64,000 bases of DNA from Candidatus Marinacidobacterales bacterium (GTDB lineage: Bacteria; Acidobacteriota; Vicinamibacteria; Marinacidobacterales; SMYC01). A model generated the notes under the pieces. That model saw only the letters and a program-made list of their open reading frames with translations. It was not told the origin of the DNA and did no database searches. The DNA is taken from assembly GCA_965237955.1 (NCBI GenBank), contig OZ250169.1, positions 5,312,001-5,376,000 on the forward strand. Direction: 5' to 3'. Shown piece after piece: positions 3,916 through 56,590 of this stretch (positions are counted from its first letter, which is position 1; each line of letters starts with the position of its first letter). A program made the translations under genes and the position numbers.

Positions 3916-4029
3916 GCCATCGGCCATCAGCCATCAGCTAAGTCGTCGTCTTGGCTGCGACGCCCCGCCGCTTACCGGCGCCGACGTCCCATAATGCGCC
4001 AGTCGAGCTGATGGCCGATGGCCGATGGC
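3916..4029. repeat. 24-bp inverted repeat built from GCCATC(A/G) heptamers, 66-nt spacer
   Basis: 3916-3939 GCCATCGGCCATCAGCCATCAGCT vs 4006-4029 AGCTGATGGCCGATGGCCGATGGC (23/24 complementary). Confidence 0.85.
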
Positions 4030-4094
4030 TGACGGCCGAATGAAATTGCTTCGATCCTTTTCACGTTTGGTCCAGTCGGGTGTTATATAGGGAA

Positions 4095-4607
4095 ATGCCC
4101 GAGAAAACGCGGTTTACCGACCTGCTGGGGAGCTACGAGAAAGAGATTCACCGGTACGCGTTTCGGATGACGGGCAATCCTGAGGACGCTCAAGACGTCC
4201 TACAGGAAACGTTTTTGAGGGCATTTCGAGCGTTTCCGCGCCTCCCGTCCGACGCGAACCATCGTGCGTGGCTCTATCGCATCGCGCATCGGCAGGCACT
4301 GAATCTATTCCGCTCACAGAAGGTGCGCGCCACCGAGCCTCTCGAGGACGCGCTCGCGGTGGGCGATGCGAACGGCCATCCCGACGACCTCGCGGAGACG
4401 CGGCGCCTGGTACGGGCCCTCGGCCATGTGATTCGCGATCTCACGCCGCGGCAGCGCTCCGCCCTTCTGTTGAGGAAGTACGAAGGCTTGGCGTACCGGG
4501 ACGTCGCCGACATTCTCGGATGTAGCGAAGAGAACGCACGTGCTCAGGTGTATCAAGCCATGAAGAAAGTTCGCAATGGCCTCGAATCGAACGGGAGCAA
4601 ATCATGA
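4095..4607 (+). CDS. ECF RNA polymerase sigma factor
   Basis: Region 2 DAQDVLQETFLRAF..AWLYRIA; region 4 LTPRQRSALLLRKYEGLAYRDVADILG. Confidence 0.92.
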   Translation: MPEKTRFTDLLGSYEKEIHRYAFRMTGNPEDAQDVLQETFLRAFRAFPRLPSDANHRAWLYRIAHRQALNLFRSQKVRATEPLEDALAVGDANGHPDDLAETRRLVRALGHVIRDLTPRQRSALLLRKYEGLAYRDVADILGCSEENARAQVYQAMKKVRNGLESNGSKS

Positions 4608-5203
4608 AAAAACTCGACTTGCTGGAACCCACGGACTCGGAGTGGAAACGAGCCCACACCTTCTTGATGGAGGGATTCGCATCGGTGCGTGTCTTCTACG
4701 AATGGATTGACGCGCCGTTCGGCAAAGTGTTTCTCGCCAAAACGGAACGAGGTCTATGCCGGGTGAGCTTCCGTCGCAAAGAGGACGACCTCGTCGATGA
4801 CCTCGAAAAGCGCGAGCTTCTCCCCGAGAAAGGGGCGGGGCAACTCGATCGCGAGCGCCGTCAATTCGACGAGTACTTCGAAGGCAAGCGACGGCACTTC
4901 GAGCTCCCGGTGGATATCCGCTGGGGTACGCCGTTTCAGCGCAAGGTTCTCGAGGCTGCGAGCGAGATCCCTTTCGGCCATTGCGAGTGCTACACCGACG
5001 TCGCCGAGCGGATCGGTCATCCCAAGGCTCAGCGTGCCGTCGGTAACGCTTTGGGCAAGAACCCCGTCGCCATCGTCGTTCCTTGCCACCGCGTCGTGGC
5101 CTCGGGCGGGCGTCTCGGCGGTTACACCGGGGGATTGGACATCAAACGAACGTTGATGAGTATCGAAGGCATTCAAGTAGAGCCAGTTGAGGAGGAAGCA
5201 TGA
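4604..5203 (+). CDS. ogt: Methylated-DNA-[protein]-cysteine S-methyltransferase
   Basis: TPFQRKV, RAVGNALGKNP, active-site PCHRVV, GGYTGG. Confidence 0.92.
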   Translation: MKKLDLLEPTDSEWKRAHTFLMEGFASVRVFYEWIDAPFGKVFLAKTERGLCRVSFRRKEDDLVDDLEKRELLPEKGAGQLDRERRQFDEYFEGKRRHFELPVDIRWGTPFQRKVLEAASEIPFGHCECYTDVAERIGHPKAQRAVGNALGKNPVAIVVPCHRVVASGGRLGGYTGGLDIKRTLMSIEGIQVEPVEEEA

Positions 5204-6054
5204 GTACGCAGAACACGATGACGACGTTGGAGCATCCGTGCACCGAGTGTGACGGTTTTCTCGAGCCAGAGCTCGTCTCGATCTACCCGAGCTCTCAGGT
5301 CTGCCTCGACTGCATGCCCCAATCCGAGCGCACGCAGCTCGAAAAAGACCTCAACCAGGTGCAGCAACTGGACCGCGCCCTTTTGCCGAACCTCCCACAC
5401 GTCGACGGATGGGACGTCGGGCTCCACTATCGCCCGTCGCGACTCTTGAGCGGTGATTTCTACGATGTTCGTGCGGAAGACGATGGGCGTCTCACGCTCC
5501 TCGTCGGCGACGTCATGGGAAAGGGCATCCCGGCCGCGCTCCTGCGCACCGGGTTACAAAGCTCGCTCAAGGCCCTCGCGCCGGAAGTGTGCTCGCCCGC
5601 GAAAGTGCTCGAAAAGGCGAACCGCCATTTTCTCAGCAGCGCATCTCCGGGACGTCTCGCGACTGTTTTCCTCGGAGCGCTCGACACCGGAGGCGGTCAG
5701 CTGCGCTACGTCAACGCGGGGCATCTCCCACCGCTGGTGCGTCGCGCGTCGGGCGATTGGCAGGCGCTCGATACTACCGGGATGGTCCTGGGCGCGCTCG
5801 AGAACGTTCCGTACTCCGAGGAAGTGGCGACGCTCGAGCGAGGCGACTTGCTCGTGCTCTTCTCCGACGGGTTCACCGAAGCCGAGAACGGCGCGGGCGA
5901 AGTATTCGACGAGCGTCACGTCACGCGGTGCGTGGACCAGCTACCCGGCGCGCCCGCGCAAGTGTTGGCGTCCAGCGTCGCCGAGGAGCTCGCCAACTTC
6001 GCGCCCGGTGAGCCGAGCGACGACCGGACACTCTTGATGTTGAGGCGCACTTGA
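5200..6054 (+). CDS. PP2C/SpoIIE family phosphatase with N-terminal C4 zinc finger
   Basis: SGDFYD, GDVMGKG, NAGH, FSDG, DDRT motifs; N-terminal CTEC...CLDC. Confidence 0.9.
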   Translation: MSTQNTMTTLEHPCTECDGFLEPELVSIYPSSQVCLDCMPQSERTQLEKDLNQVQQLDRALLPNLPHVDGWDVGLHYRPSRLLSGDFYDVRAEDDGRLTLLVGDVMGKGIPAALLRTGLQSSLKALAPEVCSPAKVLEKANRHFLSSASPGRLATVFLGALDTGGGQLRYVNAGHLPPLVRRASGDWQALDTTGMVLGALENVPYSEEVATLERGDLLVLFSDGFTEAENGAGEVFDERHVTRCVDQLPGAPAQVLASSVAEELANFAPGEPSDDRTLLMLRRT

Positions 6055-6433
6055 GCGAGTTCGAACGGATCGTCGATCAGCTGGAGCGAGCCTATCGAGG
6101 CGAAGCGTGGCACGGGCCGTCGATTCGGGAAGTTCTGGATGGCGTCGACGCGGATGCCGCGTCCGCGCGTCCTGTCTCGAATGGCCACACCATCAAGGAG
6201 CTCGTCGTCCACGTCCTCGTGTGGGAGAAAGAAGCCCAGGCTCGCCTCGCGGGCAAAGGCCGAGACGACCTGCCTCCCGAAGACACGGTGTCATCCAACA
6301 TCACCTCTACCACGCCGGACAGATGGCCATTCTCAAAAAAGCGCTTACAATAGGTTGCGTCGGGAGTGGCTACTTGTGAGCGAGGAGCGGCGCGCGCGAG
6401 CGAGGGAGATTCTGCAATGCGCCCTGGCGAAAA
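5327..6433 (+). repeat. 1107-bp direct repeat, copy 1
   Basis: Reads identical to 11591-12697 (offset 6264); ORF translations in both copies match. Confidence 0.95.
6051..6379 (+). pseudogene. DinB-family protein, internally deleted/frameshifted (second copy 12315-12643)
   Basis: GEAWHGPS..HTIKELVVH in one frame; C-terminal GVIQHHLYHAGQMAILKK in another frame after ~6285. Confidence 0.75.
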
Positions 6434-6700
6434 TTGCTTTCGTACCCGCCTGGCTCATCACGGGGAACAAGGTCTTTACCAGCTTTGTAATCCTGACAGG
6501 CCTGTTCGTTTGCTACCTGTTCATAAGGGTTCACGATGCGATCCACTACCCAGCACACCGATGGATAGAACGGCAGGGATGGTTCCACTTTCTGGACCGC
6601 CATCACTACATTCATCACATGGACCCGACTGCGAACGTCAATTTCCTCCTTCCGGTTTGCGATGTTCTCCTTGGAACTCTCAAGCTCACGCCCACGCACG
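6434..6700 (+). pseudogene. Fatty-acid hydroxylase/sterol desaturase C-terminal fragment
   Basis: His boxes VHDAIH and HHYIHH, NVNFLLPVCDVLLGTL; no start. Confidence 0.6.
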
Positions 6701-7065
6701 AGGAGAGATTCGGTGAGCTGCAAGGTGATATCTTCTCCCGTCAAGGCGGTGGTTGTGTCCACCAGCGGAGTGATCGCGGTGACGGTGACTTCTTCTGTAA
6801 TCCCGCTCACCCAGAGGGCAATCTCCACCGAGGCGGTGTAGCCGGCCCGAACCAGAACCCTTTCGTTCTTTGCTTCTCTAAACCCCGGCATGTTGACGGT
6901 GACGACGTACTCCGCCGATGGCTCCAAAGAACCGAGGGTGGCCACACCTTGGCTGTTAGTCGTCGTCTCCCTGCCGGGTCCCGTGTCTTTGGCTTGCGCT
7001 CTAACTACGGCTCCCGGCAGACGGCTTCCCTGTTGGTCTTGGACGATGACAACGATGGTGCCTTT
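6700..7065 (-). pseudogene. Carboxypeptidase-regulatory-like domain fragment of a TonB-dependent receptor
   Basis: GTIVVIVQDQQGSRLPGAVV...TVNMPGF...EEVTVTAITPLVDTT; truncated on both sides. Confidence 0.6.
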
Positions 7066-7074
7066 GGTCGCTAC

Positions 7075-7835
7075 CTGCGCCTCCCCGGCGACGCGCCGTG
7101 TGCTCGAGCTCGCGGCCCACGCTCTCATGGTGGCGGTGCATGTCGTGCTCCTGGTTTACGGGGCTCAACTCGCATTACGGTTTTTCACCGAGCGCGCCAT
7201 CACCGTGGATATCCCGGTCGGACTCGTCTATCTGGTGATCCCGCTCTCGGCGGCCTTGATGTTTGTGATCGAAGCTATCCACATCGCCCGACGGATCGCG
7301 GACTGATGGAGCTTCTTCTTCTCCCGCTCCCGCTCCTCCTCGTCCTCATCGCCATCGGCTTGCCCATCGGCTATGCCTTGATTGCCACCAGGCATCGTCG
7401 TCATCGCGCTCACGACGTCTACGCCTCTCGTGATCGTGGCGCAGTGTCTATTCAACGGCACCGACAACTTCCAGATGGTTGCGGTGCCGCTGTTCATCCT
7501 GGCGGGCGCGTTGATGAACCACGCCGGGATCTCGCGACGCCTCGTCGACTTCGCCGCCAGTCTCGTCGGCTTCATCCGCGGCGGCCTGGCGATGACGACG
7601 ACGCTCTCGAGCATGTTCTTCTCCGAAGTCTCCGGCTCCGCTGTCGCCGACGCGGCCGCGCTCGGGAGCGTCCTCATCCCCGCGATGAAAGAGCGAGGCT
7701 ATCCGGCTCGATTCGCAGCAGCGGTGTTGTCGTCGTCCGCCACCATCGCGATCATCATCCCGCCGTCGATCCCGATGATTCTCTTCGGTGCGATCACGGG
7801 CGAGTCGATCGTGAAGCTCTTCATGGCGGGCGTGG
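7075..7835 (+). pseudogene. TRAP transporter small-permease 3' end plus truncated large permease (DctM-like)
   Basis: AVPLFILAGALMN, SGSAVADAAALGSVLIPAM, IIPPSIPMI; truncated after KLFMAGVV. Confidence 0.75.
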
Positions 7836-7854
7836 TTCACACTCCGGTCGCCAT

Positions 7855-8395
7855 GAACCGTGAGCACGCGATCTTCGAGCGCGGCCGGTGCGTGGCGGTC
7901 TCGCCTTCGGACACCGCACCGGCGCTGGTCGCACTCGACGCGTCCCTGGGTGATCCGGAACGCGAGCGGCGAGCGCGTCGTCGCGGCCGAGGATTTCTTC
8001 ATGCCGCAGTCGACGGACATCACCCGCATGACCGTGCTCGAGCCCGGCGATCTCTTGACCGCCATCCGGATTCCCGGCACGTGGTCCGGCGCAGAGTTCT
8101 ATTTCGAAAAAGTCGCGGACCGCAACACGTGGGACTTCCCGCTGGTGAACGTCACGACTGCCATGACGCTCGACGGCTCTGGCAACATCAAGACTATGCG
8201 CATCGCGTGCGCCGGTGTCCAGTGCACACCACGGCGCCTGACGGCCGTGGAGACGCTGGTGAAGGGACGTCCCCGGGACGAAGAGACCGCCAAGCTCGCC
8301 GGCGCAGCCTCCGTCGAAGGTGCGAGGCCTTTGAACTTCAACCAGTTCAAAATGCCGCTGATGGAGAACCTCGTGAAGCGGGCCGTCAGAACGCA
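7855..8395 (+). pseudogene. Xanthine-dehydrogenase-family FAD-binding subunit, 3' fragment, frameshifted
   Basis: NREHAIF..CVAVSPSDTAPALVALDA; FEKVADRNTWDFPLV; ARPLNFNQFKMPLMENLVKRA. Confidence 0.75.
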
Positions 8396-8571
8396 GGCAT
8401 GGGTAGCCCGGCGACTCCAACCAGCGGGTCCCGGCCCTCCGGGGGTGATTGATCTCGGCCAGCGGGCTCGACGGCGGCGGCCATCATCTCGTAGACGCGT
8501 CGTGCCATATCACCCAGGAGCTCTCGGTGATGCAGGAAATGCGCTGCCTTTCCCGGAATTCCCGGATGATC

Positions 8572-8601
8572 AAAAAAAAAGCGCGACGACCCGCCGCGCT
8601 T
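8572..8601 (-). terminator. Rho-independent terminator of the PEP-CTERM gene
   Basis: Minus strand AAGCGCGGCG-GGT-CGTCGCGCTT followed by a T run, 25 nt after the stop. Confidence 0.7.
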
Positions 8602-8626
8602 GTCGCGAAATTAACTTTCCGCGCCG

Positions 8627-9199
8627 TCAGGCGCGGAAACGCCTTAGCGCAAATCCCAGTAGACCAATTCCCACAAGGCTCAGTACACCGGGCTCAGGGA
8701 CGTGCTCGACGTCGAGGTCGACGACAAAACGTCCGGTACCAAGGCCCTCCATGTTCACTCGCACGAAATCGTCCCCGAAAGTCACACGGCTCGGATCCAG
8801 TCCCGCGATCCCCGTGGTCAAGGTGAAACCCACAACGCGCCCGGGGCCGTCGGTCCAATCAAGATCCGAGAACTCGAATCCGTTGAAAGCTGCACTGCCA
8901 TAAAAGGGACCAGGGATTTGGTCGTAGGTGATGGACGACGCCCCAAAGTCGAAGCTGGCGTCCGTAAAGAAGTTCCCTCCACCACAGATGGTAGAGGTGC
9001 CGCCGCCATTACCAACGCACTCGATCTCGGGGCTGCCACCGTCGACGACCGTGATGACGTCTGGCCCGGCGAAGACAGATCCCAAGTTTGGCGAAAACCA
9101 CGTTACAACAATGTCGTCGCCGATGAGGGTCGCTTCAGCCGCAGGCGCCAAAACGAACGTGACGGCGATCGCGACCGCTATCGTTATTACCGTTCGCAT
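8627..9199 (-). CDS. PEP-CTERM sorting-domain protein
   Basis: Signal peptide (MRTVITIAVAIAV..AEA), C-terminal VPEPGVLSLVGIGLLGFALRRFR. Confidence 0.85.
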   Translation of the reverse strand: MRTVITIAVAIAVTFVLAPAAEATLIGDDIVVTWFSPNLGSVFAGPDVITVVDGGSPEIECVGNGGGTSTICGGGNFFTDASFDFGASSITYDQIPGPFYGSAAFNGFEFSDLDWTDGPGRVVGFTLTTGIAGLDPSRVTFGDDFVRVNMEGLGTGRFVVDLDVEHVPEPGVLSLVGIGLLGFALRRFRA

Positions 9200-9369
9200 A
9201 CAAGCCTCCCGAAAACTTGCAACGCAAGGCCGCATGATGCTTTCCTCGGGTCTCCGTTGCTTTTGTGTTCTCCGTACAGCTTCCTTGGCTTGCAATCTTC
9301 AAGCGGGCCACGACTGTGAAGTGGTGGCTCCATCCAAGATTGCTCCATCCAAAGATTAAGGATAGGAAA

Positions 9370-9600
9370 TTGAAGGATAACATTCGTCGAGCCGTCGAAA
9401 CGGACGTGCTTGATTATCAACAGCTTATGGATTGTCTCAAGGGCTACGCCAAGCCACGGGACAAAGTTCGCGCCATGCTGAAGGCTGGCGAGATTGTCAG
9501 GGTAAAGAAGGGAATTTACGTTTTCGGAGAGGACTACCGACGTGCCGCCAGGTCTCGCGAGATTCTAGCGAACTTGATCTATGGACCTTCGTATATCAGC
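9370..9600 (+). pseudogene. Type IV TA AbiEi-like antitoxin, N-terminal fragment
   Basis: YAKPRDKV..GEIVRVKKGIYVF..LANLIYGPSYIS, then breaks off. Confidence 0.6.
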
Positions 9601-9872
9601 CGTGCTGTTCGCACGATCTTTGTGGAGGCCGGAGAGCGAACGTTCGACACATCTGCATAATGCAGGCCTTCTATGAGCGACCGGCTGGCCATGTGGCTTG
9701 CGGCCTGCCATGCGTGGGCATGAACAGAACCCACCGAGTTCGCCAGACCTACGACCACAGGCTGCGCGATGCGATCGCCGCGACTGGTAACGCGGACCTG
9801 TTCCGCGACGTTGCCATCCCGGCTTCGACGCGGCGCAGTGGGCGCGTGGCGAGGTTCGTCCGGTGGTTACTA

Positions 9873-10370
9873 TGTTTCGGTTCAGCTAGAACATGACAGT
9901 CCTGAAGTTAAAATACGCACATGGAAAAAGGAGCTGTCATGAGCAAAGGTCGTCGTCGTCACACTGCGGAGCAAAAGGCAGAGCTGTTGCGCCAGCACGT
10001 TGCCGAGAAAAAGCCGGTCTCGGAGGTATGCAACGAGGCAGAAATCCAGCCGAGCCTGTTCTACACATGGCAAAGGGAGCTATTGGCTGGAGCCCATACG
10101 GTGTTTTCGTTCCGTCGTGCGCCGAGCCGTGAGAAGGAGCTAGTCCCCTGGATCTTTGATTACTATACAAAGTTAGGCTTTTCGCCAGCCCATAAGATTC
10201 ATAAGATTCATGCACTTAGAAGGTTCTGATACAGGGGACCAGAGGGTTTCGGCAAGCTCTGCTTTATCTAGTTTGTTCTGATACAGGGGACCAGAGGAGA
10301 AGCTCTCCCGTCTCGAGGCGAAGGTGGCCCGTAAGGATCAGATCATCGCTGAGGTGACCGAAGAGTACGT
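9873..10370 (+). mobile_element. IS3-family remnant (left end plus OrfA), interrupted by a MITE
   Basis: TG-start end at 9873; OrfA from 9939 RRRHTAEQKAELLR..FYTWQRE; frame resumes after the MITE (LEEKLSRLEAKVARKDQIIAEV). Confidence 0.7.
10143..10291. mobile_element. IS630-type MITE-A copy with a 22-bp internal duplication of its right end
   Basis: Same sequence as 19190-19316 plus an extra GTTCTGATACAGGGGACCAGAG; left flank TA, right flank mutated to CA. Confidence 0.9.
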
Positions 10371-10374
10371 GATC

Positions 10375-11331
10375 TGCTGGCAGATGGCATGAACCCAATC
10401 AAGAGAGTCGAGAAAGAGGAGCGTTTCTCCGGTAAGCGGATCAGGGGGTGTGGTGAGCAAGACGCGGCTATCCTGGGTTTGGCTCACCCCGCCAACTCGA
10501 ACGGGAGCGCGGGTGAGGTAGCGGGCGAGTTTTTCCAGCCGCTGCGGCTCGTCGTCCCAGACGAGCTGCTCCGCATAGACCGAAAACACCGAAGGATTCC
10601 ATTGCAGCAACCGGTTCATGAACTCCTCGGAGAGACGCTCCGCGCGGTGTAGTCGCTCGAGCAAAAGGCGTCGGAAGCGCTCTTCGATATCTTTGAGGAT
10701 AGAGTTGGCCGGCTTGGGCAAGGGCAGAAACTCCCCCTGCGGGGTGCATCAACCACATCAGTTCGAAAACCCCCTCCATGACCAGACAATGGATGTGGGG
10801 GTGCCAATTCGCGCCGAAGGAACCAAAGGTTTGAATCGAAGACACCGAGCCGGGTCGGACGTCTGTGCGATCTAGAAGTTTCTGGAAACTCTTGTTGATG
10901 GCTTCGAAGGCTGTCTGGGAGAGAAGGCTGAGCAGGGAACGTTCTCTTTCAAACAGACCACGAAGCACTTTCGGAATGCTGAGAGTAAAGTGCCGATGGG
11001 GTACCGGTGCCAGGATCTCTTCTCTGAGTTTCTCGGCAAACAACCAAGAGCGCTTGGCCTGACAGGACGGGCAAAAGTTTCTCGATTGACAGGAGAAAGC
11101 AAGCAGATGCTCGTCCTTGCAGGAAGGGCAGCGAATCCGAGCGAAGCCTCCATGAAGTCGTCCACAATCCAAAAAGGCTTCTACCGTGGGTCGGACCACA
11201 CTTCGCAGCGGTCCCGCCTTGGGTTCGAACCGCTCCTCGTAGGCGTAGACGTAGTCGTCGAAGTGCTTCTCAAGCAAGCGGTAGAAGGCGGTTCGCTCGG
11301 GGTGCCGCGGTCGGTAGACTCCTAGCTCCAT
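10375..11331 (-). mobile_element. IS91-family (Y2, rolling-circle) transposase, frameshifted and truncated
   Basis: Zn-binding domain CGRLHGGFARIRC..C..FSCQSRNFCPSC, HUH motif WHPHIHC, LARYLTRAP. Confidence 0.85.
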
Positions 11332-11430
11332 ACAGGCTAGGAGTGACGAGTTTCAGGTTCGGAACCCCCTCCTTGAAGACCCATTTTTCGGTGTGACGCT
11401 CGGCTCAAAGGGGCGGGGGTCACGACTCAA

Positions 11431-12318
11431 ATGGCGTGCGAGCCTGCTGATGACGGCCGAGAGGAGCAGGTCGTTATCCATTGGGACTTGAAGCTCGCCA
11501 ACGTGAAGAGAAGACTCTCGGTAAGATTAAGGTCACTCCCGATGCTCGAGCTCTGGGCCACGGCCTGCTGGCTGGGAGCCACTGTAGACAAGCGCACGCA
11601 GCTCGAAAAAGACCTCAACCAGGTGCAGCAACTGGACCGCGCCCTTTTGCCGAACCTCCCACACGTCGACGGATGGGACGTCGGGCTCCACTATCGCCCG
11701 TCGCGACTCTTGAGCGGTGATTTCTACGATGTTCGTGCGGAAGACGATGGGCGTCTCACGCTCCTCGTCGGCGACGTCATGGGAAAGGGCATCCCGGCCG
11801 CGCTCCTGCGCACCGGGTTACAAAGCTCGCTCAAGGCCCTCGCGCCGGAAGTGTGCTCGCCCGCGAAAGTGCTCGAAAAGGCGAACCGCCATTTTCTCAG
11901 CAGCGCATCTCCGGGACGTCTCGCGACTGTTTTCCTCGGAGCGCTCGACACCGGAGGCGGTCAGCTGCGCTACGTCAACGCGGGGCATCTCCCACCGCTG
12001 GTGCGTCGCGCGTCGGGCGATTGGCAGGCGCTCGATACTACCGGGATGGTCCTGGGCGCGCTCGAGAACGTTCCGTACTCCGAGGAAGTGGCGACGCTCG
12101 AGCGAGGCGACTTGCTCGTGCTCTTCTCCGACGGGTTCACCGAAGCCGAGAACGGCGCGGGCGAAGTATTCGACGAGCGTCACGTCACGCGGTGCGTGGA
12201 CCAGCTACCCGGCGCGCCCGCGCAAGTGTTGGCGTCCAGCGTCGCCGAGGAGCTCGCCAACTTCGCGCCCGGTGAGCCGAGCGACGACCGGACACTCTTG
12301 ATGTTGAGGCGCACTTGA
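11431..12318 (+). pseudogene. Duplicated PP2C domain fused to unrelated upstream sequence (zinc finger lost)
   Basis: Identical to 5200..6054 from RTQLEKD onward; new N-terminus includes a kinase-like VIHWDLKLANVK scrap. Confidence 0.7.
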
Positions 12319-12697
12319 GCGAGTTCGAACGGATCGTCGATCAGCTGGAGCGAGCCTATCGAGGCGAAGCGTGGCACGGGCCGTCGATTCGGGAAGTTCT
12401 GGATGGCGTCGACGCGGATGCCGCGTCCGCGCGTCCTGTCTCGAATGGCCACACCATCAAGGAGCTCGTCGTCCACGTCCTCGTGTGGGAGAAAGAAGCC
12501 CAGGCTCGCCTCGCGGGCAAAGGCCGAGACGACCTGCCTCCCGAAGACACGGTGTCATCCAACATCACCTCTACCACGCCGGACAGATGGCCATTCTCAA
12601 AAAAGCGCTTACAATAGGTTGCGTCGGGAGTGGCTACTTGTGAGCGAGGAGCGGCGCGCGCGAGCGAGGGAGATTCTGCAATGCGCCCTGGCGAAAA
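11591..12697 (+). repeat. 1107-bp direct repeat, copy 2
   Basis: Matches 5327-6433; this copy continues into the interrupted kinase N-terminus (KKSDERTQFLRDAC). Confidence 0.95.
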
Positions 12698-12888
12698 AGT
12701 CCGATGAAAGGACGCAGTTTCTTCGCGACGCGTGCCAGAGCGATCCCACGCTCATCCCCGAAGTCGAGCTAGCGACACGGCCAAGGCAGGATTAGAGCCG
12801 ATGGCGCCGTGTGAGCACGTAGGCATTTCCCTACGCATCGTGAAGTTGGACATTACGTAAATGACTGCAAACATTACTACCTACTGCC

Positions 12889-12904
12889 CGGCACGCCGAT
12901 TGCA
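12889..12904 (+). promoter_or_regulatory. Sigma-54 promoter (-24/-12)
   Basis: CGGCACGCCGATTGCA, GG-N10-GC, matches the TGGCAC-N5-TTGC consensus; 12 nt before GTG 12917. Confidence 0.65.
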
Positions 12905-12916
12905 AAACGGAACGAC

Positions 12917-13480
12917 GTGAAGACGGTTCTCGATCTACTCAAGAAATACGACGATCTGAACGAAGCCAAGATCCGTGGCGGCGGGAAACTCTCGCCCGAG
13001 GATGAGGAGCGCTGGGAAGAGTTGAAGGTCGTCTACGACCTGCTCATGTTCCACTCCGGACTCACGAGTGAGAACGCAAGCGCCCCGTTCTCGCCTGCGG
13101 AGCTCCGCGAGACACTCGCCGATGAGACGCGACTACGGGTTCCCGTCGAAGCGCACGCGATGGTCGAGCACGAAGGCGGCTCCTTCGACGCTAATGTCGT
13201 GAACGTGAGTCGCGGCGGCGTCTTCCTCGCGTCCGAGACTCTCGCGTAGGCTGGCTCCCGGCTGACCCTCTATCTCGTAGGCTTGTCCGACGACGATGAC
13301 CCCGGCGACATGCTCGAGCTCACCGGCGAAGTCGTCTGGTGTGCCGAGGAGGGGATTCCCGAAGCCCGCATCCGGCGCGGCATGGGAATCCGTCTCGTCG
13401 ACGTTTCGGAGGAGACCGGCGAGCGTTTGGAGTCACTCGTCGTCAAGACGATCGAGAAACGACTCACCCGTTTCGGCTGA
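12917..13480 (+). pseudogene. PilZ-domain protein split by an in-frame TAG (13247-13249)
   Basis: RLRVPV..NVSRGGVFL * ..LTGEVVW..GMGIRL all in one frame. Confidence 0.75.
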
Positions 13481-13498
13481 CAGCCTGACAGGCTGACG

Positions 13499-14821
13499 CT
13501 ACCACGCGTTCACGAGCTGTTCAAAACCACGTAGCTCGATGAACCCCGGCTCTGGCACGACCCGCTGTGAGCGCAACGTTTGCGCCGACTCGGGGCTGCA
13601 CGTGCCGTTTCTCAAGAAGTAGAGCGCTTCGGCGAGCCGCGCCTCTTCAGGATTGCCGAGCGGCCGGTTGAGCCCGTCACGCATCGGGCAGTCGACCGGA
13701 AGACCGTCGTAGTACTCGCCATCTCCCTCGGCATTGACACCGAGGAACGAGACGGGGAAGAGCACTTTGTCGCAGAACTCGAAGCCGTACTGGCCGACCG
13801 GTTTTCCAAATGTTCTCCGTCCAACGAGGGTGACAGGGATGAAAGGCTCGAGCGCGTTGATCACTAGCTCGCTCGCCGACGCGGAGGACTGACTGGTAAT
13901 GACGACGAGTCGCGGCACGTCGATGGCAGCGGCTAGATCTTCGAAACGGAGTGCTCGGTTTCGGAACGACTGCTTGTCGTTGTGGATGAACTCGACGAAG
14001 ACGCGCGTGTTCGTGTGAACTCCGCCAATCAAGCTCCCGAGGTAGCGGGCGACGTCGATGAGGCCGCCGCCATTGTAGCGGACGTCGAGAATCACGTCGT
14101 CGACGCCTTGCTCATGAAACTCGGTGAACACGCGACGGAGCGCAGGGGTCGATGGCTCGACGAAATTTCTCAAGTGGACGTAACCCACGGGAAGTCCGTC
14201 GTTGTCGAACACCGCCGAGTGGGAAACCGTCGGGATCGTGTAGGGTCGTTTGACGACCGTCGCGGTGAGCTCGTCGCCCGCGATCGATCGCCACGTCAAC
14301 TCGAGGGTATAGCCCGGTTCTGACGGCCCGAGCGCAGCACCGAGCTCGCCGCTTGCGAGGAGCTCGGAAACGGGGCGCCCGTCGATGGCGAGAAGGTAGT
14401 CGCCGCGGCGAAGCCCGGCCTCGTCGGCGGCGCTTTCGGGAAAAACTTGCGCTATCCGCAACTCGCCCGGTTGCAGTTGCCGGGCCGTGAACCCGATACC
14501 GACGCTCTGGCTTGCCGAGTAAAACGCCGTGGACGCGGCGCGCGAAGTAATGTAGCTGAAGCGGTTGTCGATCGGGCGGAACCGCACGCGGTCCAGGTAG
14601 GCCTCGGGAGAATCGAAAAGAGCCGGATCGGCCTCCGGGAGCTCGCGGTACCAGAGATAGAACTCGTCGAGCCTTTCGCGAACGAACGTGTTTTGCCCGA
14701 CGACCGAGCAGTCTTGTGCGGGTGAGGGTACGGCGACTAGCAATAGCGCCAAGACGGAGAGGATTACGCGTGGACGATCGATGGTGTCCATGGTTGCCAT
14801 AGTGGCCATGTTGTCAGACAA
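13499..14821 (-). CDS. S41 family (C-terminal processing) peptidase with PDZ domain
   Basis: LDVRYNGGG, SASASELVIN, TFGKPVG; signal peptide. Confidence 0.9.
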   Translation of the reverse strand: MSDNMATMATMDTIDRPRVILSVLALLLVAVPSPAQDCSVVGQNTFVRERLDEFYLWYRELPEADPALFDSPEAYLDRVRFRPIDNRFSYITSRAASTAFYSASQSVGIGFTARQLQPGELRIAQVFPESAADEAGLRRGDYLLAIDGRPVSELLASGELGAALGPSEPGYTLELTWRSIAGDELTATVVKRPYTIPTVSHSAVFDNDGLPVGYVHLRNFVEPSTPALRRVFTEFHEQGVDDVILDVRYNGGGLIDVARYLGSLIGGVHTNTRVFVEFIHNDKQSFRNRALRFEDLAAAIDVPRLVVITSQSSASASELVINALEPFIPVTLVGRRTFGKPVGQYGFEFCDKVLFPVSFLGVNAEGDGEYYDGLPVDCPMRDGLNRPLGNPEEARLAEALYFLRNGTCSPESAQTLRSQRVVPEPGFIELRGFEQLVNAW

Positions 14822-18344: not shown

Positions 18345-19190
18345 ATGGCTCGATTGGCTCACATCCGAAGCTGGGGCGTGGGGCTCGGGCTGTTGGTTCT
18401 TCTCGCCGGTAGTTTCTCCGTAGTGGCGGCTCAAGGTCGAGGCTGGTGGAACCGCGTCCCACCGCGGTTTGCGGAGCCGAACACCCCGTCGAACGACTTG
18501 TTCTCGTTTTGCCGCATCCTCTACGAAAGCGTGCGTCGTGAGCCTTCTGGCTATGGGTGGAACACCGACTACCCGTACTCCGACATCAATTTCATGACGC
18601 GTTTCTCGCAACTGACGACGGCGAAGATCCGTCGTGACGGCGATGGCATGCCCCAGCACGTGGTGGTGACGCTCTTTGACGATACGATCTTCGAGTATCC
18701 GTTCGTCTTCATGTCCGACGTCGGCACCGTTGGCTTCAGTCCAATGGAAGTCGAACGGCTACGGGACTACCTTGTCCGAGGCGGTGTCTTGTACGTGGAC
18801 GACTTCTGGGGAGAGCGTGCGTGGGAGCATTGGAAGCACGAGATCGGTAAAGTTCTTCCGCCGGATGACTATCCTATCGTCGACGTACCTCTCGATCACG
18901 TCATCTTTCGCACGTTCTACACGATCCGCAAAGTCCCGCAGATTCCGTCGATCCACTATTGGCGACGCTCGGGAGGGAGCAGTACTTCGGAGAGAGGGTG
19001 GGAGACCGCGGAGCCTCACTTCCGCGGTATCTTCGACGAGCACGGTCGGTTGATGGTGATCATGACCCACAACACCGACATCGCTGACGGTTGGGAGCGC
19101 GAGGCAGAAGAAGAAGAGTACTTCTACCGATTCTCGCTCAAAGCCTATCCCGTTGGCGTGAACATCGCGATCTACGCGATGACGCACTAG
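18345..19190 (+). CDS. DUF4159 domain protein
   Basis: WNTDYPYSDINF, LRDYLVRGG..DDFWG, HNTDIADGWE, GVNIAIYAMTH. Confidence 0.85.
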   Translation: MARLAHIRSWGVGLGLLVLLAGSFSVVAAQGRGWWNRVPPRFAEPNTPSNDLFSFCRILYESVRREPSGYGWNTDYPYSDINFMTRFSQLTTAKIRRDGDGMPQHVVVTLFDDTIFEYPFVFMSDVGTVGFSPMEVERLRDYLVRGGVLYVDDFWGERAWEHWKHEIGKVLPPDDYPIVDVPLDHVIFRTFYTIRKVPQIPSIHYWRRSGGSSTSERGWETAEPHFRGIFDEHGRLMVIMTHNTDIADGWEREAEEEEYFYRFSLKAYPVGVNIAIYAMTH

Positions 19191-19316
19191 TCCCCTGGAT
19201 CTTTGATTACTATACAAAGTTAGGCTTTTCGCCAGCCCATAAGATTCATAAGATTCATGCACTTAGAATGGTTTCGGCAAGCTCTGCTTTATCTAGTTTG
19301 TTCTGATACAGGGGAC
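19190..19316. mobile_element. IS630-type MITE-A (127 bp)
   Basis: GTCCCCTG...CAGGGGAC ends, TA duplicated (19188-89, 19317-18) in CTAG context. Confidence 0.92.
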
Positions 19317-19705
19317 TAGCGCGGCTGCCGCACTTTGATCCAGGCCGCCGGTCCTTCGCCCCTCCGCTCGCGCTCCTCGGAGAGCACCTCGACCTCGAGG
19401 CCTTCGGCTAGATCGTCGACGCTCCCGGCGGTATTGGCCTCGCCGAGCTCGCTGCGATCAACCCAAATGATGGTGTTCTCGGTGAGCTCGACGACGACCG
19501 GTCCCGTCTCCGTCGCCATCGTCAGCTGCCGCGCGTCAACATCGATCGCTTCGATGGAACCGATGCGCGCATATTCGCCCGAGATCCCCGGCGATTTTCC
19601 GATAGGGATGTATTGCTCCGTCGCCCGCTGGCCCGCGTCGGTTACGAGTGCGAGAGCCACGGCGAGCATGGTCAGGCTTTTTGTGTAGCGAAACTTCTCC
19701 TTCAC
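19316..19705 (-). CDS. Small exported hypothetical protein (OB-fold-like)
   Basis: N-terminal hydrophobic stretch, GSIEAIDVDARQLT..DLAEGLEVEV; overlaps the stop of the peroxidase gene. Confidence 0.65.
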   Translation of the reverse strand: MKEKFRYTKSLTMLAVALALVTDAGQRATEQYIPIGKSPGISGEYARIGSIEAIDVDARQLTMATETGPVVVELTENTIIWVDRSELGEANTAGSVDDLAEGLEVEVLSEERERRGEGPAAWIKVRQPR

Positions 19706-21302: not shown

Positions 21303-22946
21303 ATGAAAAAAATATTGTGGCTGCCTCTGTTCTTCGCCGCAGCCTGCCAGCCCCGCGAAGCCGATCGTTTCCGGGTGGTCGAGGCGACCATCGCCGATAT
21401 TCAAGAAGCCGTTCTCTCCGGACGGACGACATGCCGTGGGGTGGTGCAGGCGTATCTCGAGCGCATCGAGGCCTATGACCAGCCCACCGGTCTCAACGCG
21501 ATTACGGTGGTGAACCCCAATGCCTTGGAAACCGCCGATGCGATCGATCGCGCGATCGCGAACGCTAAGGACGACGAGCTCGGACCGCTCTTTTGCGCTC
21601 CCATCCTCGTGAAGGACAACTTCGACACCCACGACCTGCCGACGACCGGGGGATCGATTGCGCTCATGGACAGCATCCCGCCGGACGATGCGTTCATGGT
21701 GCGAAAGCTTCGCGAGGCGGACGCGATCGTCATCGCCAAGACCAACATGGCGGAGTGGGCGTTCAGTCCCCGTCGTACCGAGAGCTCGTCCTACGGCACC
21801 ACCGCGAATGCGTACGCGCTCGATCGCGTTCCCGCGGGCTCGAGCGGAGGCACCGCGTCGGGCGTCGCGGCGAGCTTCGGCGTGGCCGGACTTGGCTCGG
21901 ATACCGGTAACTCCATCCGTGGTCCATCATCGCACCTTGCGCTTTTCGGGATCCGCTCGACGATCGGTCTCACGAGCCGCGACGGTGTCATTCCCCTCGC
22001 TTTCGATCGTGATATCGCGGGCCCGTTGACGCGAACCGTCGAAGACGGGGCCAGGGTCTTCGACGTCGTTGCCGGCTACGATCCCGCGGACTTCTACACC
22101 GAGCTCGGAAAAGGCAGACGCGAGGCCGATTACACGAGCTTTCTACGCGCGGACGGTCTCGAAGGAGCGCGCCTTGGAGTTTTGCGTGCTCTCGTGGATA
22201 CCGAGGATGCCGCCGCCGAAGTCATCGCGTTGTTCGAGGTAGCACTCGAGGAGCTCCGTGCCGCGGACGCGGAGATTATCGACCCGGTTGTGATCGACAA
22301 CTTCGCTTCTCACCTAGATGCGAGCAACGGGTGCCCGCGCTTCCGCTACGACATGTTCGTCTATCTGCAATCCCTGGGCGATGACGCGCCTATTGAAGAC
22401 GTGATGGAGGCGTACGAGAACGGCGATTATTCGGACTACGTCGCGAGCCGGCTCGAGCGCCATCAGGACCGACCGCTCGACGTGGCGCCTGCCGACTGGG
22501 ATCCTCCGTGTCCCGACTATGCCGATCATCCTGGCCGTCAGGCATATTTGGCGGACGTCGTTGCAGCGATGGATGCCTCGGGCGTGGATGCGCTCCTCTA
22601 TCCGACGTGGACGAATCCTCCCGCCCATATCGACCGGCCGAGCGAAGAGTACAAAGGCGACAACAGTCAGCTGGTCGCGCCGGCGACGGGCATGCCCGCC
22701 GTGACCGTGCCCATTGGTTATTCATACGACGGCCTTCCCGCCGGGCTTCAGATCTTGGGACGACCTTATGCGGAGGGTCGCCTCATCGAGCTCGCCTACG
22801 CGTACGAGCAGGCGACCCATCACCGGCTAGTCCCCCGGATCTTTGATTACTATACAAAGTTAGGCTTTTCGCCAGCCCATAAGATCCATAAGATTCATGC
22901 ACTTAGAAGTGTTTCGGCAAGCTCTGCTTTATCTAGTTTGTTCTGA
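21303..22946 (+). CDS. Amidase-signature family lipoprotein; C-terminus replaced by MITE read-through
   Basis: Lipobox AAAC, VKDNFDT, GSSGGTA, GSDTGNSIRGPSS. Confidence 0.9.
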   Translation: MKKILWLPLFFAAACQPREADRFRVVEATIADIQEAVLSGRTTCRGVVQAYLERIEAYDQPTGLNAITVVNPNALETADAIDRAIANAKDDELGPLFCAPILVKDNFDTHDLPTTGGSIALMDSIPPDDAFMVRKLREADAIVIAKTNMAEWAFSPRRTESSSYGTTANAYALDRVPAGSSGGTASGVAASFGVAGLGSDTGNSIRGPSSHLALFGIRSTIGLTSRDGVIPLAFDRDIAGPLTRTVEDGARVFDVVAGYDPADFYTELGKGRREADYTSFLRADGLEGARLGVLRALVDTEDAAAEVIALFEVALEELRAADAEIIDPVVIDNFASHLDASNGCPRFRYDMFVYLQSLGDDAPIEDVMEAYENGDYSDYVASRLERHQDRPLDVAPADWDPPCPDYADHPGRQAYLADVVAAMDASGVDALLYPTWTNPPAHIDRPSEEYKGDNSQLVAPATGMPAVTVPIGYSYDGLPAGLQILGRPYAEGRLIELAYAYEQATHHRLVPRIFDYYTKLGFSPAHKIHKIHALRSVSASSALSSLF

Positions 22947-22956
22947 TACAGGGGAC
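22830..22956. mobile_element. IS630-type MITE-A (127 bp)
   Basis: Near-identical to 19190-19316; TA duplication 22828-29/22957-58. Confidence 0.92.
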
Positions 22957-23045
22957 TAGCGCCGGAGCAGTTCGGCGAGCTCACACGGTAGATCGTAGAG
23001 CTCGTCTCGTCAATGCCTTCGAGATCGGCGTTTGTCCGCTCCGTG

Positions 23046-26247: not shown

Positions 26248-27527
26248 GCAGACAACGTCTCGTCGCTGCACTCGTCGGTGGCCTCGCGATCGTCGGTGTC
26301 GTTGCGATCACTCTCTACGAATCCAGTGAAGAAACAGTTCCGCTCCTCGAGGTTCGCATGGAACCGTTCCAGCAGCGGATCACCGCGGAAGGTGTGCTCG
26401 AAGCCGTGCGCTCGACGCCCCTGTCGTCGCCGCCACGGACCGAAGGCCCGGCCAAGATCGCGTGGATGGTCGAAGACGGGATCGTCGTCGAGCAAGGGGA
26501 CATCATCGTACGCTTCGATCCCACCGAACGAGAACGAGAGCTTCTGGAAGGAGAGGTGGCGCTTTCCACGGTCGAGAGCAAAATCCTGCAGAGCCAGGCC
26601 CAGACCGAGGCCTCGTTGCACGACGTGGAGCGCGACCGCCAACTGGCCCAGTTCGAGCTCGATATGGCCCGGAACTTCTCGAGCAAGGATCCGGAAATCT
26701 TCTCCCGGATGGAGATCATCGAAGCACAGATCGACGAAGAGCTGGCGGGTCTCAAACTCGAGCACGCCGAAGGCAGCGAACAGATCCAGGAGAGTCTCTC
26801 CGCGTCCGAAATGAAGCTTTTCAACATCGAAAGAACTCAGGCGGAGGTGAAGATTCGTCAGGCCAACGATGCGCTCAACGCTCTCGAAGTTCGCGCACCG
26901 CACGACGGCATCGTGATCTTCGTGAGGGATTGGCGCGGTAACATAAAGCAAGTTGGAGACACGGTCTACTCGAGACAGGCCATCGCCGAGCTTCCGGCCC
27001 TGGACATCATGAAGGCGGACATCTACGTGCTCGAAGCCGACGCGGGCGGACTCCAGGAGGGCCGTCCGGCAGAGCTTATCGTAGAGGCGGCACCCGAGCG
27101 TTCTTTCAGCGCGACGATCCGATACGTCGATCGTATGCCGAAGCCCAAAGTCCGCGGCGTTCCGGTTCAATACTTCTCGGTGACGCTGGGCCTGGAAGAA
27201 ACCGATCCCGAGATCATGAAGCCGGGGCAACGGGTGCGGGCCACGCTTGTCCTCGTCGAGAGCGATGCCGCTATCGTCGTCCCGCGTCAGGCCGTCTTCG
27301 AAAAGGAAGGCAAGAAGTTCGTCTATCGGGTCGTCCATCGGCGGGGCGGGTCCGGCTTCGAGGAAGTCGAGGTGAGACTCGGGCCGTCTTCTTTTGGGCG
27401 GGTCGTGCTCGAGGACGGTATTTCCGAAGGCGATACGATTGCGCTTCGCGATCCGGCGCGATCCCGCCGGGCGCTCGTGCCGGGTGCCGGCGAAAGCGCT
27501 TCCGATACGACTCCGAGCTTCCCATGA
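26244..27527 (+). CDS. Periplasmic adaptor (membrane fusion protein) 3
   Basis: TM anchor, EDGIVVEQGDIIVRFD, RAPHDGIV, MKPGQRVRA. Confidence 0.87.
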   Translation: MSRQRLVAALVGGLAIVGVVAITLYESSEETVPLLEVRMEPFQQRITAEGVLEAVRSTPLSSPPRTEGPAKIAWMVEDGIVVEQGDIIVRFDPTERERELLEGEVALSTVESKILQSQAQTEASLHDVERDRQLAQFELDMARNFSSKDPEIFSRMEIIEAQIDEELAGLKLEHAEGSEQIQESLSASEMKLFNIERTQAEVKIRQANDALNALEVRAPHDGIVIFVRDWRGNIKQVGDTVYSRQAIAELPALDIMKADIYVLEADAGGLQEGRPAELIVEAAPERSFSATIRYVDRMPKPKVRGVPVQYFSVTLGLEETDPEIMKPGQRVRATLVLVESDAAIVVPRQAVFEKEGKKFVYRVVHRRGGSGFEEVEVRLGPSSFGRVVLEDGISEGDTIALRDPARSRRALVPGAGESASDTTPSFP

Positions 27528-28759
27528 GCTTCGCCGAGACGTTCCGGGACGCGATCGATAGCCTGACGGCGCACAAGCTACGTGCCGGCCTCAGCATGCT
27601 CGGAATGATCTTCGGCGTCGGCGCGGTCATCGCGATGCTCTCCATCGGCGAAGGCGCCGAGCGTCAGGCCCTCGAAATGATCGAGCGCCTCGGGCTTCGC
27701 AACATCGTCGTCGATGCCAAGGACCTCGCCCGAGAGGACCTGATGGAGATTCGGGAAAAATCGCCCGGACTCACGAACCGCGACATCGATGCTATTCGGG
27801 AGGCGGTTTCAGGGGTCGAATGGGTGGCGCCCCGAGTCAAAGTGGAGCCTTACAAGGTCATGACCGCAGGCGCCAAGACCGACGCCATGGCCTACGGGGT
27901 TTCGCATCATCACTTCGAGCTCACAAGCGTGGGAGTGGCGGAAGGGCGCTCTCTCGATCCGCTCGATGAGCAAACCCACGCTCAGGTGGCCGTCATCGGC
28001 GCCAAGGTTCGCCAGGATCTTTTCGGGTACGACGCGGCTCTCGGCCAGACGCTGAAAGTCAACGATGTCTGGTTGGAGGTGGTCGGCGTCCTCGCCTCCG
28101 ACACGAGCGGCGCCCAGTCGTTTCAAGGAGTTCAGCTGAGCTCCACCGCGGGCGAGATCTACATGCCCTATTCGACGGCTCTACGGAAGTTCGATCACCC
28201 ACCGCTCGACTCGCCGCTCGATCAAATCGTCGTGAGAGTTGCGGGAGACGCGTCCCCATGGGAGACCACGGCCGTGATCGAACCTTTGCTCGAGCTTCTG
28301 CACGGAGGTGCTCGAGACTACACCATCATCGTCCCGGAAGCGCTTCTGGAGCAGAGCCGGCGCACCCAGCGACTCTTCAAGATCGTCATGGGCTGTATTG
28401 CCGGGATCTCGCTCCTGGTGGGCGGCATCGGGATCATGAACATCATGCTTGCGAGCGTTCTCGAGCGAACGAGGGAGATCGGTGTGCGCCGCGCCGTCGG
28501 AGCCCGTCGCGACGATATCCGCTTCCAATTCATCGTGGAGTCGTTTTCCATTAGCCTCATCGGGGGGCTCGCCGGCATTTTCATGGGCCTGGCCATCGCC
28601 CACGTGGTTGCCTTCTACGCCGAATGGCCGACGGTCGTAACCCCGTGGTCGATCCTTCTTTCGAGTGGCGTCTCGGTGACGGTCGGCGTCGTCTCCGGTC
28701 TCTACCCCGCGAGCCGAGCCGCGGAGCTCGACCCGGTCGTGGCGCTCGGCTACGAGTAG
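27524..28759 (+). CDS. MacB-type ABC permease
   Basis: LSMLGMIFGVGAVIAM, ISLLVGGIGIMNIMLASVLERTREIG, YPASRAAELDPVVAL. Confidence 0.93.
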   Translation: MSFAETFRDAIDSLTAHKLRAGLSMLGMIFGVGAVIAMLSIGEGAERQALEMIERLGLRNIVVDAKDLAREDLMEIREKSPGLTNRDIDAIREAVSGVEWVAPRVKVEPYKVMTAGAKTDAMAYGVSHHHFELTSVGVAEGRSLDPLDEQTHAQVAVIGAKVRQDLFGYDAALGQTLKVNDVWLEVVGVLASDTSGAQSFQGVQLSSTAGEIYMPYSTALRKFDHPPLDSPLDQIVVRVAGDASPWETTAVIEPLLELLHGGARDYTIIVPEALLEQSRRTQRLFKIVMGCIAGISLLVGGIGIMNIMLASVLERTREIGVRRAVGARRDDIRFQFIVESFSISLIGGLAGIFMGLAIAHVVAFYAEWPTVVTPWSILLSSGVSVTVGVVSGLYPASRAAELDPVVALGYE

Positions 28760-50968: not shown

Positions 50969-51532
50969 CTACTCGAGACAGCCCATCGCGGAGCTTCCGG
51001 CTCTGGACATCATGAAGGCGGACATCCACGTGCTCGAAGCCGACGCGGGCGGACTCCAGGAGGGCCGTCCGGCAGAGCTTACCGTAGAGGCGGCACCCCA
51101 GCGTTCTTTCAGTGCGACCATCCGATACGTCGATCAGATGCCGAAGCCCAAGATCCGCGGCGTTCCGGTGCAATACTTCTCGGTGACGCTCGGCCTGGAA
51201 GAAACCGATCCCGAGATCATGAAGCCGGGGCAACGGGTGCGCGCCACGCTTGTCCTCGTCGAGCTCGACGCCGCGATCGTCGTCCCGCGTCAGGTCGTCT
51301 TTGAAAAGGAAGGTAAGAAGTTCATCTATCGGGTCGTCTATCGGCAGGGCGGGTCCGGCTTCGAGGAAGTCGAGGTGAGACTCGGGCCGTCTTCTTTGGG
51401 GCGGGTCGTCCTCGAGGACGGTATTTCCGAAGGCGACGCAATTGCGCTTCGCGATCTCAAGGTTCGCCAGGATCTTTTCGGGTACGACGCGACTCTCGGT
51501 CAGACGCTGAAAGTCAACGATGTGTGGTTGGA
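50969..51532 (+). pseudogene. Diverged partial copy of adaptor-3 (26966-27453) joined to a permease piece (28003-28077)
   Basis: About 30 substitutions in 488 bp by hand count; junction at 51456/51458. Confidence 0.9.
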
Positions 51533-56555: not shown

Positions 56556-56590
56556 ACGGCCGATGGCGCACCTAAGCTAGTCCCCTGCTA

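Follow-up and report, generated by a model that had tools for sequence, protein, structure and literature searches.

How could some fifteen scraps of DNA come to lie between two identical copies of a host chromosomal segment? The question is raised by positions 5327-12697 of a 64,000-nucleotide stretch (the window; G000:C1:5312001-5376000) of a Candidatus Marinacidobacterales genome, G000, which consists of one 8.13-Mb contig and is 29% repeated, mostly in the form of insertion sequence (IS) elements. A sequence-only reading of the window had taken the locus for a circle of scrap DNA plus a host anchor, integrated by a single crossover. Our analysis favors, with a probability of about 0.55, an account in which the scrap segment was built stepwise by nested transposition and deletion, after which it was attached to a piece of host DNA and entered the chromosome through a single crossover.

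The segment that frames the locus is a direct repeat, here R, of 1107 bp: positions 5327-6433 equal 11591-12697 with 0 mismatches, just as the sequence-only reading had it, and no extension is possible on either side. Between the two copies lies an insert of 5157 bp comprising about 15 pieces. Only these two copies of R, and no third, occur in the 8.13 Mb of the genome. The features of R and its native surroundings are:

5200..6054, plus strand: PP2C/SpoIIE phosphatase, an intact native gene of 284 aa (PF07228; syntenic in the relatives G006, G015, G018, G017 and G012).
5327..6433, plus strand: R copy 1, running on into the insert (depth 48-50 versus 24-27 in run X19).
6051..6353, plus strand: DinB-family pseudogene with an internal deletion of ~154 bp near 6280, in both R copies and in a sister strain.
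11591..12697, plus strand: R copy 2, running on into the native right flank (sequence identity, X19 contigs).
12640..12795, plus strand: stub resembling a kinase N-terminus, between DinB and PilZ, absent from G006.

R thus contains the last 242 codons of the PP2C gene, the DinB gene with its ~154-bp deletion and the start of the kinase-like stub. It is syntenic host DNA and not an IS, which sets the locus apart from a composite transposon, where the flanking repeats are IS elements. The gene order in G006 is sigma factor, ogt, PP2C, full DinB, PilZ and S41 peptidase, and its left part is common to four other relatives. R copy 1 retains the native left joint and R copy 2 the native right joint; as had been claimed, the stub's open reading frame (ORF) is continued only past the second copy, to a stop at 12795. 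The integrase families are absent from the 23 ORFs scanned, and the 1107-bp length of R is unlike that of the short att repeats of integrase-driven islands.

That the locus is real follows from short-read contigs. Six runs, which come from three samples in two studies, were compared with it, and each contains 0.43-0.92 of the words sampled from the insert; runs X1-X18 (word shares 0.13-0.16) carry no evidential weight. In run X19 the contigs break off precisely 30 bases inside or outside each edge of R, and all four edge joints have 0 other letters. Its depths are 26.8 on the left flank, 48-50 on R, 24-26 on the insert and 21.5 on the right flank: R is double and the insert single, so that the coverage check proposed earlier (R about 48 versus 25 elsewhere) comes out against a single-copy repeat. 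The depth of the insert is not in excess of that of the flanks, with the proviso that a circle would share its joints with the chromosome. In S20, from the second study, the left-to-R, R-to-insert and insert-to-R joints are present at a depth of about 3-4, and the part of R unique to the insert-bearing strain has a depth of 6.7. Within the insert, X23 and X22 each have a single base that departs from the window, as expected of separate clones; the uncovered stretches in X23 prove nothing. These data have limits: X19 is possibly the source sample, the two studies are possibly one campaign, and contigs drop variants.

An assembly or amplification chimera, the alternative offered by the sequence-only reading, could draw on the possible identity of X19 with the source sample, and on the fact that among the listed contigs none spans the whole stretch, while the joint 9872/9873 and the miniature inverted-repeat transposable element (MITE) described below are absent from the listed pieces. 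Yet the same joints are seen in three samples of the two studies, R has double and the insert single depth, and the one-base departures of X23 and X22 are those that separate clones would have. Because the same joints recur in short-read contigs of both studies and the depth doubles on R, a chimera is very unlikely and that alternative falls away.

Sample S20 also holds a sister strain, which differs at no fewer than 12 positions in 738 bp of R (a divergence of ~1.6%). The sister's depth is 7-10, while that of the insert remains 2.9; hence the sister appears to lack the insert and to represent the empty-site allele, a judgment based on contig depth and variants, as no contig spans the empty site. 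This strain has a 490-bp deletion of its own in the PP2C gene (window 5205-5696). Since the sister, ~1.6% divergent, appears to be without the insert, a recent date for the duplication is likely. At the sister's divergence, the probability of finding no difference in 1107 bp would be about 1.5e-8; at 0.08%, the level between insert-bearing clones, it would be about 0.4. In contrast to the identical R copies, the scraps carry frameshifts and indels: two 1-bp frameshifts (one in dctM, the other in the FAD gene), a 19-bp insert, 22-bp and 16-bp duplications and a 12-bp deletion. It is thus likely that the insert predates the duplication and moved as a single block. In the FAD and DctM pieces, private amino-acid changes (3 and 4, versus 0-7 in orthologs) are not clearly raised, so that this age argument rests on the frameshifts.

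These observations fit a Campbell-type single-crossover ('pop-in') integration, which duplicates the homology arm. Under the stepwise account, an IS-rich and partly foreign island would have collapsed via deletions at joints of 0-2 bp microhomology, in some cases up to about 7 bp; two illegitimate joins, for which the cell has Ku/LigD end-joining, would have linked the collapsed block at both ends to R, a chromosomal piece from the same clone; and a crossover of the RecA type in R would then have opened the 6264-bp circle to give flank-R-insert-R-flank. The likeness to a pop-in lies in the identical direct host repeats, the retention of both native joints and the apparent empty site in the sister; the differences are that the locus is natural, that its non-host part is a scrap block without replicon or integrase, and that the circle has not been observed. 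The proposed circle integration thus fits as regards the single crossover, and the circle itself is something that we infer and have not seen. A double template switch during replication would yield the identical sequence and cannot be told apart from a crossover.

The doubling of R could also have begun as a tandem duplication starting at R and trimmed in place by deletions until only R stayed doubled. Deletions have been active at the locus (DinB, the stub, the 490-bp loss in the sister), and a study on pneumococcus documents duplications without flanking repeats (PMC3784515). However, such a history needs a second copy of the insert elsewhere, of which there is none in G000, and the sister appears to be without the insert; moreover, many deletions would be required during a time of zero substitutions in R. 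We regard this path as highly improbable.

What, then, is the insert made of? Its pieces, in order, are:

6434..6708, plus strand: fatty-acid hydroxylase/desaturase, internal fragment (about residues 137-231 of a 255-aa homolog; from homologs).
6702..7080, minus strand: TonB-dependent receptor-type gene, 5' fragment without signal peptide (PF13620).
7081..7838, plus strand: TRAP transporter, 3' part of dctQ and 5' part of dctM, with a 1-bp frameshift near 7390 (Pfam matches DctQ, DctM).
7839..8467, plus strand: molybdopterin-dehydrogenase FAD subunit, 3' part and downstream DNA, with a 1-bp frameshift near 7949 (PF03450).
8455..8545, minus strand: IS91-family transposase sliver of ~90 bp with a 12-bp internal deletion, ends approximate (similarity).
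8627..9199, minus strand: PEP-CTERM protein, 190 aa, the sole intact gene of the insert (Pfam match; terminator-like hairpins at 8579-8639).
9300..9357, plus strand: IS110 transposase sliver of 42 bp, then a 16-bp near-copy of its own end (97.6% to G000:4526281-4526322).
9358..9379, plus strand: tip of an IS91-family origin end (oriIS), 14 bp, and the likely start of a second tandem tip (G000 copies; IS91 oligonucleotides).
9376..9601, plus strand: AbiEi-type antitoxin, 5' fragment, IS-interrupted (homology).
9598..9872, plus strand: rve-type IS (~1.5 kb), precise left end and first 275 bp (G000 copies).
9873..10372, plus strand: IS3-family element with a precise left end, cut on the right, with a MITE at its CTAG site (PF01527; G000 copies).
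10371..11429, minus strand: IS91-family transposase remnant and upstream region, start at 11331 (PF14319, PF04986).
11430..11590, plus strand: degenerate Ser/Thr-kinase-like remnant, fused in frame to the PP2C of copy 2 (ORF 11431-12318).

Every piece named in the sequence-only reading finds support, the kinase ones weakly and AbiEi below the Pfam cut-off, and its single intact gene, the 190-aa PEP-CTERM gene at 8627-9199, is indeed there; its list was incomplete, having missed the IS110 sliver, the IS91-like sliver, the oriIS tip, the MITE, the 16-bp duplication and the 19-bp insert. The TonB-type, DctQ, DctM, FAD subunit, PEP-CTERM, IS3 orfA (PF01527) and IS91 (PF14319, PF04986) matches lie above the Pfam cut-off. 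The pieces are cut mid-gene and so are a poor fit to an integron cassette array, in which attC sites stand between whole genes.

For the desaturase piece there are 95 longer homologs, the best at 77% and many with PF04116; the piece overlaps the TonB piece by up to 7 bp, as judged from homologs. In a database protein (P0010), an IS91 zinc domain is fused to a desaturase belonging to the family of this piece. DctQ and DctM constitute one contiguous operon piece, which is 81% identical to the syntenic operon of G000 itself and 78% to three relatives; it is therefore likely a foreign allele from the same family. Six relatives match the FAD piece at 80-87% identity, and a metagenome contig at up to 90%. 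An exosortase is present in G000; the 100-bp leader of the PEP-CTERM gene has no sigma-70-like site. The AbiEi piece, below the cut-off in Pfam (E 1.4e-4), nevertheless shares 91% identity with a G029 gene that lies upstream of an AbiEii gene. Neither the kinase remnant nor the kinase stub has a Pfam match, and both owe their label to weak similarity to kinases of G000.

Near-identical copies in G000 exist only for the IS3, MITE, IS91 and IS110 pieces, so that the fragment-by-fragment donor search suggested earlier was fruitful for these and for no others. No relative or metagenome locus convincingly holds two non-adjacent pieces, in searches of 41 genomes using the DNA, of 19 using 6380-7100 and of 55 using the TonB piece, or among 6 loci of the desaturase piece and the best 80 of 313 of the FAD piece. 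An origin of the FAD piece in the mutS-sppA interval of G000 had to be rejected: the insertion there is G015's own, an internally shortened molybdo-enzyme block (L016:5335-7145) with an FAD gene between mutS and sppA, and G000 has none. The region of G000 that matches the neighborhood of the FAD gene's neighbor in genus g6 holds no leftover, the IS110 source region in G000 has nothing else in common with the insert, and the 19-bp insert has no source of at least 14 bp in G000.

The mobile-element pieces are those that speak to the order of events. All 10 of the other listed G000 copies of the rve-type IS start at the same point with unrelated flanks; the piece alone has no Pfam match, and the ORF of the complete ~1.5-kb IS has PF00665. 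The MITE within the IS3 element (about 10139-10294) has a private 22-bp duplication. It is found in 2 of the 21 G000 IS3 copies having the site, the insert's allele occurring otherwise only at G000:6589436, where the IS3::MITE copy continues past the point, with 2-bp microhomology, at which the insert's copy is cut. Given this common allele in an uncut element, that part of the insert passed through the mobile pool of the lineage and was cut after that transposition. A ~134-bp MITE with CTAG ends has more than 100 copies in G000, and an 1189-bp element has the same ends; the window positions concerned are 10139-10294, 19187-19320, 22826-22962, 56587-56721 and 34031-34064.

Four of the 15 joints coincide precisely with the ends of elements, namely an IS inserted in the antitoxin gene, the IS3 in that IS, the MITE in the IS3, and the oriIS tip beside the IS110 remnant. 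Microhomology of 0-2 bp is found at the joints R/desaturase, TonB/dctQ, dctM/FAD and IS3/IS91; the tip/AbiEi joint has 3-4 bp in common and the desaturase/TonB joint up to 7 bp, and four joints are undefined. The description of pieces butt-joined in mid-gene thus does not hold for every joint: four are precise ends, and DctQ/DctM is one piece. The precise IS ends at 9358, 9598 and 9873 and the MITE argue for a stepwise history, and the phrase 'assembled from scrap' has to be amended: much of the insert is nested transposition plus deletion, likely older than the duplication.

Nested IS clusters and deletion-collapsed pseudogene regions are typical of IS-expanded genomes. In G000, deletions that left little microhomology are frequent: among 90 listed same-element IS joints, 34 are deletions of at least 27 bp, 12 of these with 0-2 bp of microhomology, 3 with 4-10 bp and 19 unscorable. 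One IS, at G000:5307082-5307259 and hence ~10 kb upstream of the locus, has collapsed to 53+43+81 bp in collinear order, and a 118-bp coxL sliver in G006 is a further case of deletion collapse, as is the shortened molybdo-enzyme block of G015. The locus resembles the nested IS clusters seen in G000, G006 and G015 in having IS within IS within gene, collinear slivers and 0-2 bp of microhomology; it differs from them by a much higher density of joints, by foreign non-IS pieces and by the fresh 1.1-kb duplication around it. Elsewhere in G000, an IS copy at C1:3797887-3800500 has apparently undergone inversion and internal rejoining, with all three joints inside 300 bp, and a patchwork at C1:1213552-1218220 has the same IS91 transposase with a 69-bp deletion and a kinase C-lobe fragment in place of the N-terminus. 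Within the window, 50969-51456 and 51458-51532 are a deletion-joined, 94-96% copy of HlyD/MacB-region pieces (26966-27453, 28003-28077).

The high joint density and the mostly blunt joints could instead point to a single step, in which Ku/LigD ligated a large number of free fragments, derived from lysed cells or from a shattered region, with R into a circle that integrated at once. Ku, three-domain LigD and ComEC are intact in G000, the TRAP allele would be foreign, and a study in Sinorhizobium demonstrates capture of foreign DNA by non-homologous end joining, including two tandem cassettes at one break (PMC6379672). Intact Ku and LigD and such capture also count for the stepwise account. Machinery, blunt joints and foreign DNA are alike in both the locus and these captures; those reported, however, involve a single cassette or two at a break and lack a long duplication (PMC6379672). 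The nested precise IS ends that were then truncated, the 12-bp deletion in a 90-bp sliver and the frameshifts predating the repeat all point to a stepwise history, and end-joining at a break does not itself duplicate 1.1 kb. A one-step origin is accordingly improbable.

The sequence-only reading had named the IS91-type transposase as candidate collector. In such a scenario an IS91-family element, whose origin is now at 9358-9379, took R by one-ended rolling-circle transposition and then the cargo, and a circle was rescued by recombination in R; the interior of the origin and the transposase were lost afterwards, and repeated rounds could have added pieces singly. This remains a tentative proposition, which we think rather unlikely, and yet it has the most to be said for it among the competitors of the stepwise account. 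The 9358 tip agrees in 10 of 11 letters with the oriIS core of IS91 (oligonucleotides in the supplement of PMC13181058); its 14-mer has 8 exact occurrences in G000 versus 0.013 expected, and the chance of a 14-mer in the insert is about 4e-6. Of the 23 IS91 C-terminal pieces listed for G000, 5 are followed at 207-226 bp by a related end. The oriIS pattern is carried by 12 of the 55 genomes of the order, and tandem origin tips like that at 9358 occur in relatives; tandem tip copies of 7-21 bp are common at IS91-type ends (L144, L148, L159, L161; G000:4013175, 4530082, 6423250).

The layout is likewise suggestive. The tip is correctly oriented, facing the transposase remnant, and the order R-cargo-origin...transposase-R is that of ISCR1 complex class 1 integrons, for which PMC7707992 describes two aberrant rolling-circle rounds plus homologous recombination; one-ended transposition has a frequency of 1-14% according to PMC13181058. 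Like those integrons, the locus has repeat, cargo, oriIS, transposase and repeat, with the ter side facing the duplicated segment (PMC7707992); unlike them, it has a 14-bp tip of another element, a dead transposase, a cargo of fragments in place of whole selected genes, and no conserved tetranucleotide. A second case in G000 has the same layout with a full origin end (G000:C1:1450662-1454244, L165): 388-bp host repeats (99.2%) surround an IS piece, an intact PqqC/TenA-family gene and the IS91-type origin end, and the C-terminus of the transposase abuts the right repeat. Furthermore, of 18 near two-copy direct repeats, 4 have a piece of IS91 transposase between their copies, versus 0.5-5% per random segment of like size.

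Against this, IS91 pieces cluster in islands, whereby the enrichment is inflated, and most other two-copy repeats of G000 have no origin inside. Another locus of G000 (C1:6766658-6770044, L166) has 960-bp host repeats, 1467 bp of DDE-transposase pieces and an IS5-like end at the insert-repeat joint. The tip has 14 bp, versus the 82 bp that PMC13181058 states to be sufficient for an IS91 end, and it is non-cognate, the transposase family of the remnant itself having a different end. The remnant shares PF14319 and PF04986, an HUH motif and, through the tip, a nearly identical oriIS core with the IS91 family (IS91, IS801 and IS1294; PMC13181058); it differs in being a remnant that lacks the Y2 region. 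Its translation has an HPH motif, and homology to an HUH transposase with zinc domain is confirmed; a 19-bp insert at 10745-10763 shifts the frame, and truncation at 10371 removes the C-terminal Y2 region. A hairpin near 11391-11424, upstream, is a candidate terIS, with no second copy defining its end. The three IS91-family pieces in the insert likely come from three different elements. Nor was a full-length IS91 transposase found in G000, where no ORF covers more than 285 of the about 420-450 residues.

By inspection, no target tetranucleotide is conserved at the flanks of 46 G000 ends and 20 loci from relatives, so that the joints cannot be assigned to the enzyme. A CTTN target beside the origin was dropped, as the IS91 oligonucleotides put the end three bases further out, and a 'G at -4' at the ends of pieces was set aside as a post hoc pattern without significance. 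Of the 20 origin-centered loci in relatives, one has a similar host-gene repeat layout, and its transposase-repeat joint has 11 bp of microhomology, which points to illegitimate recombination; this look-alike (L146:9195-17092, in G025) has 469-bp proline-dehydrogenase repeats around an origin end, two sulfatase-like ORFs and IS91 pieces. Finally, the rolling-circle route requires at least one deletion after the duplication, which is possible. In sum, of the collector proposed earlier there stand the correctly oriented tip and the ISCR1-like layout, against a non-cognate 14-bp origin, a broken transposase and the failure to find a full-length copy in G000.

A broader version of the same idea, speculative and in our view doubtful, is that the IS91-family origins of this lineage act like bacterial Helitrons: repeated one-ended rounds would string mid-gene fragments and a host anchor together, and a circle would be rescued by recombination into the anchor, much as with ISCR1 in integrons from the clinic. 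The 9358 tip, G000:1450662-1454244, the 46 G000 origin ends and the tandem tips in relatives would then be its footprints. Many of the 46 ends have no transposase behind them, and some of their flanks are common across genera (G000:24014/L151, 6459716/L154); this sharing of flanks at IS91-type ends suggests origin-linked cargo.

We return to the stepwise account, on which several points weigh. It leaves as a coincidence the presence of three IS91-family remnants in 5 kb together with an ISCR-like layout. It has to accommodate 11 joints within 5.2 kb that are not due to transposition, against a background of about one deletion in every 28 kb of IS DNA. No donor was found for the desaturase, TonB, TRAP, FAD, PEP-CTERM and kinase pieces, whose collinearity is thus a presumption; the two joints bounding R have no known donor on the insert side; and the microhomologies are estimated from homologs of 60-90% identity. 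Among the relatives and metagenome loci searched, no circle, donor island or less-collapsed version was found. X23, of patchy depth, does not show a second R copy, and small differences between the R copies could be hidden, as contigs drop variants. A literature search, in which subscription journals were thinly covered, returned no description of such a structure.

Some features of the neighborhood remain to be recorded. The kinase stub is also missing from a further relative. The PilZ-domain gene at 12917-13480 is split by an in-frame stop at 13247-13249. The only tRNA call (ARAGORN tRNA-Leu, 4156-4246) lies inside the sigma-factor gene, has no Rfam support and is likely false; an Rfam scan of 4000-14000 gave no match. 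In ORF 11431-12318 (plus strand, 295 aa), the duplication fused the kinase-like remnant in frame to a complete SpoIIE domain, without the four-cysteine motif found at the native PP2C N-terminus.

What the locus means depends on the route. It is not a functional IS91/ISCR element; and as the block likely arrived recently and already decayed, via a single crossover, the locus is probably genome clutter rather than a new gene-collecting machine. On the stepwise reading it is a clean, natural pop-in duplication supported by independent reads, and it illustrates the degree to which an island can be compacted by nested transposition and deletion. By the insertion event the organism gained one new in-frame fusion of a kinase remnant to PP2C and one intact PEP-CTERM gene. 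If the IS91 route were true, ISCR-type gene capture would extend from resistance plasmids to an environmental chromosome, and the lineage would offer a testable bacterial counterpart of fragment capture by Helitrons.

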